Shown here: positions 57,651 to 58,497 of the stretch, piece after piece
How positions within the stretch are numbered: position 1 is the stretch's first letter
How the letters are laid out: every line of letters begins with the position of its first letter
Source: Pseudomonas phage vB_PaePA10145phi1_MKR2
Sequence record: PV565008.1
DNA: 64,000 nt
Reading direction: 5' to 3' (one strand)
Position numbers and translations under genes: made by a program
Notes under the pieces: generated by a model
Told to the model about the DNA's origin: nothing
What the model saw: the letters and a program-made list of their open reading frames with translations, nothing else
Database searches by the model: none

Positions 57651-57914
57651 ATGCATAAACTTAATCCTGGTTGTTATCCATTAACTATAAATCCTAATGG
57701 TAAGTTTCTGAATAAAGACGATTTACGGAATCTTCCCAATGAGATTTATGTAACTTCTCCGTTACATGGTCCTAGGGTATATAGCCATGATCGACGCGTT
57801 ATGGTTGATGGTGATTATTGTTATCTAATCACTGCACCGAACATAAAATTCAAGGTAAGTGATTTCTTTAAATATAATGTAGTTTATTATCCGAGCATTT
57901 ACCTCAAGAGGTAA
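57651..57914 (+). CDS. small protein, paralog pair 2 member a (87 aa)
   Basis: Shares NLP(N/D)(E/G)xY.T.P.HGP...(Y/W).DR(R/K) with the 58270 gene product. Confidence 0.45.
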   Translation: MHKLNPGCYPLTINPNGKFLNKDDLRNLPNEIYVTSPLHGPRVYSHDRRVMVDGDYCYLITAPNIKFKVSDFFKYNVVYYPSIYLKR

Positions 57915-57921
57915 TAAATAA

Positions 57922-58206
57922 ATGGCAAACGAATGCACTCCCGGTGTCTGGGATACACTAGTTGACTCGACAAAAGAAACTGAAAACCTACGTATCCGTT
58001 CCCAACTCATGCGGGCTCTCACCCGTACTATAAAGGGCTGGGATCTTCCGCAAAAAGACGCTGCTGCTCGCCTACATGTTACGCAACCGAGATTGAATGA
58101 TCTTCTCAAAGGCAAGATTGACAAGTTCTCTCTGGACGCCCTGGTAAACCTACTGGACGCGGCTGATCTGACTCTTGAGATATCAGTGATCCCACGTGCA
58201 GTATAA
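57922..58206 (+). CDS. HigA/XRE-family HTH antitoxin homolog (orphan; no cognate toxin adjacent)
   Basis: HTH region LHVTQPRLNDLLKGKIDKFSLDALVNLLDAADLTLEISV is typical of HigA-type addiction-module antidote proteins (GKxxKFSLDALV signature). GC content is markedly higher than the flanking genes. Confidence 0.6.
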   Translation: MANECTPGVWDTLVDSTKETENLRIRSQLMRALTRTIKGWDLPQKDAAARLHVTQPRLNDLLKGKIDKFSLDALVNLLDAADLTLEISVIPRAV

Positions 58207-58269
58207 ACCATGGGGACGCAGCTTGATACGGCCACCGGGTGGTTTCATGACAGCAAGGAAATAAAGAAA

Positions 58270-58497
58270 ATGACAACTGATAAAAAGTTTAGTATTAAAG
58301 AACTCGGATGGGAAAAAGCCACTAATCTACCCGATGGTGAATACTACACTATTCCTAAACATGGACCACAAAACTGGCGGTATGATCGCAAGATTATCAA
58401 AACCAAGAACAGTGTAAAACTGGTAAATGAACCAGATTATAGCTGGTCAGCCCCATTCTTTTTCGAGGCAAATAACTTGTTAATCGAAGAACCATGA
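58270..58497 (+). CDS. small protein, paralog pair 2 member b (~75 aa)
   Basis: ATG 58270 follows AAGGAAA. The track start at 58210 lies in the GC-rich insert. Confidence 0.4.
   Translation: MTTDKKFSIKELGWEKATNLPDGEYYTIPKHGPQNWRYDRKIIKTKNSVKLVNEPDYSWSAPFFFEANNLLIEEP

Follow-up and report, generated by a model that had tools for sequence, protein, structure and literature searches.

T4 Dmd acts against RnlA and LsoA and is not homologous to the cognate antitoxins. The pseudo-ToxI RNA of phage PhiTE (PMC3475682) and T4 TifA, which is also not a homolog of the cognate antitoxin (PMC10853763), neutralize the RNase toxin of a host toxin-antitoxin (TA) system in lytic infection. AdfN from T-even phages, a DarG1-like NADAR protein, was called by its authors in 2025 the first lytic-phage antitoxin homolog for counter-defence (PMC11825919), and gp104 (AdfM) of the obligately lytic Pseudomonas phage phiKZ (PMC8244752) is a demonstrated DarG2-like macrodomain orphan antitoxin (PMC13309987). 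Both are type IV enzymes that reverse DNA ADP-ribosylation, and counter-defence by orphan antitoxins of lytic phages is demonstrated so far only for such enzymatic DarG-like proteins; the AdfN authors described type II antitoxins as hard to identify and specific (PMC11825919). The subject here is a type II antitoxin homolog, gp114 (PHIKZ114), encoded in a 64,000-nucleotide (nt) stretch of Pseudomonas phage vB_PaePA10145phi1_MKR2 (PV565008.1; the whole stretch is referred to as the window). The window corresponds approximately to phiKZ 54.9-118.9 kb, and its positions 56000-60000 are 99.7% identical to phiKZ and 100% identical to Pseudomonas phage vB_PaeM_kmuB. Like AdfM and AdfN, gp114 is an antitoxin homolog without a toxin in a lytic phage (the same phage, in the case of AdfM); unlike those enzymes, it is predicted to bind its toxin stoichiometrically and specifically. 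The outcome proposed for it is the same as for Dmd, pseudo-ToxI and TifA, but gp114 is a directly captured protein antitoxin.

The closest relatives of gp114 belong to Gp49/HTH_37 modules of Pseudomonas and other Proteobacteria, a recognized HigBA-type arrangement with the toxin gene first that is also found in Tn3-family transposons (PMC7157771). PF_gp49 toxins are ribosome-dependent mRNases, and one operates within an abortive-infection TAC system (PMC11980606). The phage protein is a full-length homolog of the antitoxin of these modules but differs in having no toxin gene, promoter/operator or terminator, in carrying eight N-terminal substitutions, and in its setting, a strictly lytic nucleus-forming phage.

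57922-58206, plus strand: PHIKZ114 (gp114), ATG start, 94 amino acids (aa), a toxin-less homolog of HigA-type HTH_37 antitoxins.

A preliminary description of this DNA had assigned the 94-aa open reading frame (ORF) an XRE/HigA helix-turn-helix (HTH) with a characteristic segment. That segment, GKIDKFSLDALVNLLDAADLTLEI, is present in gp114, and the assignment is borne out by a match to Pfam HTH_37 (PF13744) covering residues 14-89 (97.3 bits, cutoff 27, E=4.6e-28); matches to HTH_3, HTH_31 and Xre-like families were sub-threshold and far weaker. The annotation of PHIKZ114 reads "HTH DNA binding protein." No NCBIfam match and no significant PADLOC match (best E=0.032) were obtained. Across the whole 280-kb phiKZ genome, gp114 is the sole HTH_37 gene.

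Homologs of gp114 number 1382, and those on Pseudomonas chromosomes are 80-86% identical over the full 94 aa. The closest bacterial homolog and its cognate toxin, which the preliminary description had proposed to look for, are encoded in the Pseudomonas aeruginosa chromosome CP113974.1 (locus L105): the Gp49 toxin gene P0130 (L105 4001-4327) is followed by an antitoxin gene whose identity to gp114 is 89.8% at the nt level and 86% at the aa level. The two antitoxins are of equal length (94 aa) and share the same ribosome-binding site (RBS) and 3' untranslated region (UTR). A metagenomic locus, L015, encodes the same toxin as L105 (99% identity). The anticipated pairing with a RelE/ParE/HigB-type toxin immediately upstream was found to be the rule in bacteria. 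A 108-aa gene precedes the 94-aa gene in 12/12 fetched loci with upstream flank, and its products match Pfam Gp49 (PF05973) at 83-92 bits (cutoff 23.9). In a scan of one genome per species, in which the best 80 loci were taken and 76 were testable, a Gp49-type toxin gene lies directly upstream on the same strand in 63; two further loci adjoin other RelE/ParE-type genes, and about 10 look solitary. On the basis of these comparisons, gp114 can be identified as the antitoxin half of the Pseudomonas Gp49/HTH_37 (HigBA-type, toxin gene first) type II module. Across species, the length of the toxin-antitoxin spacer is bimodal: one class centers on about 29 nt and the other on about 105-150 nt. The long form, found in the Pseudomonas clade, would leave room for a promoter that drives the antitoxin gene from within the operon.

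Several sequences 92-100% identical to gp114 carry bacterial labels, namely L025 (Agrobacterium sp. a22-2, a 380-nt contig at 0.8x coverage), P0002-P0004 and P0040. Their labels are Agrobacterium, P. aeruginosa or Klebsiella pneumoniae and their contigs are tiny or phage-length; almost certainly, these bacterial assemblies contain DNA of phiKZ-like phages or contamination, and the sequences are not bacterial genes. Among lytic Pseudomonas phages, HTH_37 genes are also present in pf16 (gp179, L017 1462-1779, 68.7 bits) and Lu11 (gp115, L018 1255-1755, 28.1 bits; there, the domain forms the C terminus of a 166-aa protein), and neither has a Pfam-recognizable toxin upstream. Toxin-less HTH_37 genes may thus be recurrent in Pseudomonas phages.

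Alignment of the phage DNA with the bacterial loci defined the captured segment and the two genes between which it lies.

57905-58255, plus strand: captured bacterial fragment of 351 nt, GC content 0.49, comprising an RBS, the antitoxin ORF and 49 nt of 3' UTR.
57906-57911, plus strand: AAGAGG, the RBS of gp114, originating in the bacterial toxin-antitoxin spacer and doubling as the last codons of gp113.
58207-58255, plus strand: captured bacterial 3' UTR, GC 0.59, aligning with L105, L015 and L016 3' of their antitoxin stop codons.
57651-57914, plus strand: PHIKZ113 (gp113), 87 aa, GC 0.34, a phage-specific small protein and paralog of gp115.
58270-58497, plus strand: PHIKZ115 (gp115), 75 aa from the downstream ATG, GC 0.38, with the RBS AAGGAAA at 58255-58261.

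Homology with L105, L015 and L016 starts at 57905 (CAAGAGGTAA), 17 nt 5' of the gp114 ATG, and stops at about 58255 (GACAGCA). Alignment to the P. aeruginosa chromosome and to L015 gives identical boundaries, and CAAGAGGTAA is common to L105, L015, L016 and L002 just 5' of the antitoxin ATG. In 20-nt windows, identity to L015 is 15-20/20 within the fragment and 7/20 beyond both ends, with a local dip at about 58025-58064 and a compensating pair of indels in L015. The stop codon of gp113 (TAA, 57912-57914) falls within the captured DNA. Loci L002-L012 do not align with the 3' flank of gp114, whereas the closer L015, L016 and L105 do. The source type is a Pseudomonas Gp49/HTH_37 (HigBA-type) TA locus, of which the toxin gene, promoter/operator and terminator lie outside the captured fragment; the fragment is about 90% identical at the nt level to the P. 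aeruginosa chromosome. Acquisition from a bacterial genome, previously argued from composition, is thereby put on firmer ground: because the homology to bacterial TA loci holds at the DNA level, the gp114 ORF and its 3' flank are identified as bacterial DNA. The alignments indicate that a 351-nt fragment was cut from the toxin-antitoxin spacer to the 3' UTR and now lies between gp113 and gp115, the junctions being the grounds for inferring an insertion. A weak hairpin, CCACCGGGTGG, is present at 58232-58242 in the captured 3' UTR. A hairpin between gp112 and gp113 (ACCACCC-TATATAA-GGGTGGT, 57607-57636), with an A-run on its 5' side and a T-run on its 3' side, looks like a bidirectional terminator, and CCACCGGGTGGTTT in the captured 3' UTR is a weaker look-alike of it.

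The compositional claim itself holds with qualifications. Gp114 has a GC content of 0.491, whereas the window averages 0.372 (SD 0.038), and 0.2% of 285-nt windows are equally high; GC is 0.59 in the 49 nt 3' of the stop codon (58207-58255) and 0.21 in the following 14 nt. The higher GC of the ORF and its 3' flank therefore stands, although the flank measures about 49 rather than 60 nt. The shift in codon preference is modest: GC at third codon positions (GC3) in gp114 is 0.453, which is 1.15 SD above 13 neighboring genes. Because GC3 is so little raised and a second GC-rich patch (genes 109.1-111) lies nearby, composition and codon preference are not decisive; composition was dropped as proof of foreign origin and retained as supportive only.

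No sequence resembling the missing partner was found. When five cognate-type toxins were searched against the window, no Gp49-like sequence was detected (best E=0.55), and extension to the whole 280-kb phiKZ genome gave a best tblastn E of 1.4 and a best toxin-profile E of 2.8 over 2,038 stop-to-stop segments. The preliminary observation that no toxin is evident thus extends to the complete phiKZ genome, and a toxin remnant, or a toxin encoded elsewhere, was rejected on the same window and genome searches. Since the genome holds no detectable Gp49-like sequence, gp114 is an orphan genome-wide, a homolog of an antitoxin component that is not part of any TA module.

The fragment has been retained throughout the genus. 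Gp114 is intact in 46/46 Phikzvirus genomes, with the complete segment in all of them, and more distant chimalliviruses lack the segment. An empty site with gp113 next to gp115 was not found, as all 46 Phikzvirus genomes carry the insert and the EL-like phages differ in context. Judged by this distribution, the capture took place in an ancestor shared by all Phikzvirus phages sequenced so far. The clade of phage OMKO1 split off after capture and kept several donor-like states. GC3 is 0.56-0.61 in bacterial copies and has fallen to 0.45 in gp114, therefore pointing to a long residence in the phage, during which the base composition drifted partway toward that of its new genome.

Comparison of phiKZ and OMKO1 gave a dN/dS ratio (omega) of 0.16 for gp114 from small counts (13 synonymous and 7 nonsynonymous differences), indicating that the gene is kept under purifying selection. 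The differences are unevenly spread. Codons 22-85 show 0 nonsynonymous and 9 synonymous differences (omega 0.00, dS ~0.2), and codons 1-21 show 5 and 3, respectively (omega 0.43).

57922-57984, plus strand: gp114 codons 1-21, the N-terminal segment that is fast-evolving in the phage lineage.

Eight phiKZ residues are unseen in 38 bacterial homologs (R5C, S6T, T7P, S8G, A12T, P17T, E18K and A20T), all of them at positions 5-20, and 9/14 differences from the nearest homolog fall within residues 1-21 (binomial P=9e-4). Among bacteria, the N terminus is the more conserved part of the antitoxin, with P17 and A20 100% conserved. Position 12 changed in both phage clades, to T in phiKZ and K in OMKO1, and the family-invariant residues V9, W10, L13, E19, N22, L23 and R24 are retained in gp114. 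Because the phage diverged where bacteria conserve, the selective regime on this segment has changed in the phage, through either relaxed constraint or diversifying selection at a few sites; the omega below 1 and the small counts fit both.

An AlphaFold2 model of gp114 (predicted local distance difference test, pLDDT, 83) contains helices at residues 9-40, 44-51, 55-62 and 71-80, with the HTH formed by helices 44-51 and 55-62; the C-terminal tail was unmodeled. Residues 1-15 are predicted to be disordered, as is typical of toxin-binding antitoxin tails. Nearest in fold are two HTH_37 entries from structural genomics, 2a6c and 2o38, which were solved without a toxin; HipB and HigA antitoxins come next. 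Neither the characterized P. aeruginosa HigA nor Vibrio cholerae HigA2 was recovered in the PDB sequence and profile searches at E<=1, and armadillo-repeat matches in these searches were set aside as artifacts. The only solved complex that matches both partners, weakly, is Streptococcus pneumoniae HigBA (PDB 6AF3/6AF4; PMC7984235): the Gp49 toxin matches 6af3_A at E=0.017 and the antitoxin profile matches 6af3_B at E=0.62, collinear over residues 1-85. The order of elements is shared (beta1/alpha1, a long alpha2, the HTH alpha3-alpha4, alpha5 and a C-terminal strand) and the Foldseek TM-score is ~0.52-0.54, but the complex is very distant in sequence and the gp114 interface can be mapped onto it by analogy only. 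In S. pneumoniae HigA, beta1, alpha1 and alpha2 bind HigB, alpha3-alpha4 form the HTH and the C-terminal strand dimerizes (PMC7984235). By this analogy, residues ~5-40 of gp114, comprising the fast tail and part of the invariant core, would contact the toxin; the long helix of the model reaches residue 40.

These properties suggest a role in counter-defence, with gp114 acting as a type II orphan antitoxin that neutralizes ribosome-dependent mRNase toxins in the cytoplasm. The protein would be made on cytoplasmic ribosomes during infection. As the labile host antitoxin decays, Gp49-family toxins would be freed from TA modules of the host or its mobile elements, and gp114 would bind these ribosome-dependent mRNases and thereby protect the translation of phage mRNA, which occurs beyond the confines of the phage nucleus. 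As in S. pneumoniae HigA, the contacts would be made by the N-terminal beta1/alpha1 segment together with the long alpha2 helix, and the fast-evolving N terminus would reflect retuned toxin specificity or protein stability. Gp114 would then be the type II stoichiometric counterpart of the enzymatic gp104/AdfM and would complement the shielding of DNA by the phage nucleus. This explanation fits the origin, retention and purifying selection of gp114, as well as the setting of the bacterial loci, which are situated in islands of defence or mobile genes (TIR/ThsB, HetE-N+PIN-TPR, SMC/AAA, DUF1173 and integrase), and its chances of being right or wrong appear evenly balanced. A stronger form, in which the phage shields cytoplasmic translation with a captured type II antitoxin whose N-terminal remodeling is an arms-race signature that broadens or retargets toxin specificity, with site 12 hit twice, is conceivable but somewhat harder to credit.

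Several considerations weigh against counter-defence. Neither gp114 nor any Gp49/HTH_37 module has been connected with phiKZ infection by experiment, no data on the timing of gp114 expression or on its localization were found (the main text of PMC8244752 is silent on gp114), and PHIKZ114 was mentioned in no paper found by literature search. Type II antitoxins are usually highly specific and labile (PMC11825919). Few P. aeruginosa assemblies carry the cognate module, yet gp114 is fixed in every phage isolate; the P. aeruginosa species-representative genome was not among the best 80 loci of the species scan, and the module looks uncommon in this host. PADLOC has no model for the Gp49/HTH_37 pair. 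The ~10/76 bacterial homologs that look solitary indicate that solitary copies can persist for other reasons. In the phage, several residues with 95-100% conservation among bacteria (R5, T7, A12, P17, E18 and A20) have also given way to others; as these changes lie in the expected contact segment, toxin binding may have been lost rather than retuned, and the N-terminal omega of 0.43 is not above 1.

The main rival explanation is that gp114 is an exapted DNA-binding regulator whose HTH dimer represses host promoters with the bacterial type of operator (for example, TA or island promoters) or phage promoters with a new site, toxin binding being irrelevant. The candidate operator is a palindrome conserved about 150 nt 5' of bacterial Gp49 toxin genes, even where the flanks have diverged, and is probably of the HigA type.

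L002 3410-3430, L015 2404-2427 and L008 ~2377-2397 (bacterial loci): TATATC-N6-GATATA palindrome, presumed operator.

The window contains no exact and no one-mismatch copies of the palindrome and 8 two-mismatch copies against 9.35 expected; the whole phiKZ genome contains no exact copy and four one-mismatch sites against ~3 expected from base composition. The absence of the presumed operator from the phage genome argues against a conserved cognate target on phage DNA; host targets or a changed specificity remain compatible with it. A regulatory role would account for an HTH core (codons 22-85) that is invariant between phiKZ and OMKO1 (0 vs 9) beside an N terminus that diverged at bacterially conserved residues, but alpha2, the principal helix for toxin binding in S. 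pneumoniae HigA, lies in this core too, and conservation of the core is for that reason not specific to DNA binding. Databases list gp114 as a DNA-binding or XRE regulator, and for group 1 jumbo phages Iyer et al. suggest that HTH proteins of the cro/cI type may repress or modulate transcription in the host (PMC7824862); the solitary bacterial homologs, and a cognate module that seems rare in P. aeruginosa, point the same way. However, the phage nucleus encloses the phiKZ genome, whose transcription relies on phage RNA polymerases and not on the host apparatus (PMC8244752), so a small repressor of the host type would need import, and repression of host TA promoters without neutralization of the toxin would tend to release it. 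Gp114 resembles Aca-type repressors in being a small HTH protein in a phage block of small accessory genes but differs in its unambiguous TA antitoxin ancestry; in this comparison, the inverted repeat of the bacterial-type operator, the only operator searched for, was absent from the phage genome. On this evidence, a regulatory function is unlikely, though it is a serious contender.

An improbable variant of toxin neutralization is that gp114 serves competition between genetic elements, countering Gp49 toxins of plasmids, integrative conjugative elements, transposons and prophages so that the infected cell stays productive when these elements are destabilized, rather than opposing dedicated abortive infection. 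Homologs are common on conjugative Pseudomonas plasmids, occur in Tn3-family transposons (PMC7157771), and lie in bacterial islands that hold genes for DUF1173, integrase and YfjJ/YfjT; biochemically, this variant would not differ from counter-defence. Nevertheless, a lytic phage that kills its host in about 1 h gains little from blocking post-segregational killing, and in practice this explanation merges into counter-defence.

The preliminary description had correctly placed gp114 between two AT-rich paralogs, and it raised the possibility that the upstream one is a highly diverged toxin. Gp113 and gp115 (GC 0.34 and 0.38) are 31% identical over 59 aa (BLASTP E=5e-10), and both belong to phrog_10237 (E~4e-36). 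A complete novel TA pair formed by gp113 and gp114 (or gp114 and gp115), in which a phage-family protein replaced the Gp49 toxin, would be consistent with the position of gp113 immediately upstream (8-nt gap), the toxin position in HigBA-type operons, with its toxin-like size (87 aa) and with the fusion of its last codons and stop to the captured RBS. Yet gp113 has no Pfam, NCBIfam or PADLOC match, its hhalign probability against the Gp49 toxin alignment is 0.5%, and its AlphaFold2 model, built from 6 sequences, is mostly beta, with no RelE/ParE protein among the top 50 Foldseek folds (best E 0.38); the moderate pLDDT of 70 makes this fold test weaker than the sequence tests. The gp113 family is tiny and phage-restricted. 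Homologs at 52% identity occur in EL-like phages, which lack gp114 and carry a single gp113 homolog in a different context. Since the gp113 paralog lies on the other side of the insert, the two appear to be a tandem pair that predates the insert and was interrupted by it. The diverged-toxin proposal was therefore rejected on sequence, profile, fold and distribution, and a novel pair seems highly improbable. Multi-stretch matches of gp113 to proteins of 700-2000 aa were spurious, involving LVIVD or Ig repeat proteins. A 74-80-nt stretch of gp113 (57687-57766) is 82-84% identical at the nt level to EL-like phages, where the proteins are ~52% identical overall, and forms an unusually conserved nucleotide island between two genera.

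That gp114 is a neutral passenger, a hitch-hiking fragment without function in the phage, as its small size, its location within a block of small accessory genes and the divergent mosaic character of segment 112-115.2 between phiKZ and OMKO1 might suggest, is scarcely credible given an ORF intact in 46/46 genomes, an omega of 0.16, no amino acid change in 64 core codons despite a dS of ~0.2, and a retained RBS of its own.

If counter-defence is the correct explanation, gp114 would be the first type II (binding, nonenzymatic) orphan antitoxin shown to serve lytic-phage counter-defence. It would imply that RelE-superfamily TA modules restrict jumbo phages and would add RNA-level TA defence to the threats that nucleus-forming phages counter outside the nucleus. 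It would also show how an antitoxin evolves in nature once it is released from its toxin, with bearing on TA specificity and on host range in phage therapy, for which OMKO1 and phiKZ relatives are candidates. If gp114 is instead a regulator, it would exemplify cleanly how an antitoxin can be co-opted as a DNA-binding protein. The capture junctions are readable to the base, a donor-type locus and a candidate toxin (P0130) are available in the phage's own host species, and phiKZ is genetically manipulable, making the hypothesis directly testable.

The start of gp115 required correction. GenBank begins PHIKZ115 at the ATG at 58210 (95 aa), and the resulting extension (58210-58269) is mostly captured 3' UTR. 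Because of this location, and because 5/5 phiKZ-OMKO1 differences in the extension are nonsynonymous in the annotated frame, the GenBank start is probably wrong and 58270 the true start, as the preliminary description had it. The OMKO1 annotation of the gp115 homolog agrees, starting at the 58270-equivalent ATG, and the 75-aa form aligns with gp113 from its start. Three OMKO1 states in 58207-58255 match the bacterial sequence.

The demonstrated orphan antitoxin of phiKZ lies nearby.

52640-53128, plus strand: PHIKZ104 (AdfM), DarG2-like macrodomain orphan antitoxin, co-directional with gp114 and located 4.8 kb upstream of it.

The region around gp104-gp114 may be enriched in anti-defence genes. 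About 2 kb downstream of gp104 begins a co-directional block of small genes, which has terminator-like hairpins on either side (55143-55160 and 59338-59359). Within it, PHIKZ109.1 (56083-56334) and PHIKZ112 (57328-57603) are paralogous (38% over 56 aa, E=2e-15), share the motif REYGINP...RG.WV.R and match the C terminus of phrog_23667 (a 317-position profile); the block is built from duplicated small genes.

The second GC-rich patch (56083-57286) spans PHIKZ109.1, 110 and 111, reaches a 285-nt GC of up to 0.50 (56361-56985) and has GC3 values of 0.45-0.52 compared with 0.21-0.37 for most neighbors. Gp110 has no Pfam match, and its PHROG assignment is to a family of unknown function. This patch could be another horizontally acquired segment. 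Between phiKZ and OMKO1, genes 112-115.2 (57328-58864; L013 1886-3443) are 87-96% identical at the nt level, with a dS of 0.69 for gp112, and genes 109.1-111 and 115.3-116 are 100% identical, gene 109 differing by one base. The segment 57328-58864 is a sharply bounded mosaic or hypervariable patch surrounding the antitoxin gene, a pattern that suggests recombination with a divergent relative.

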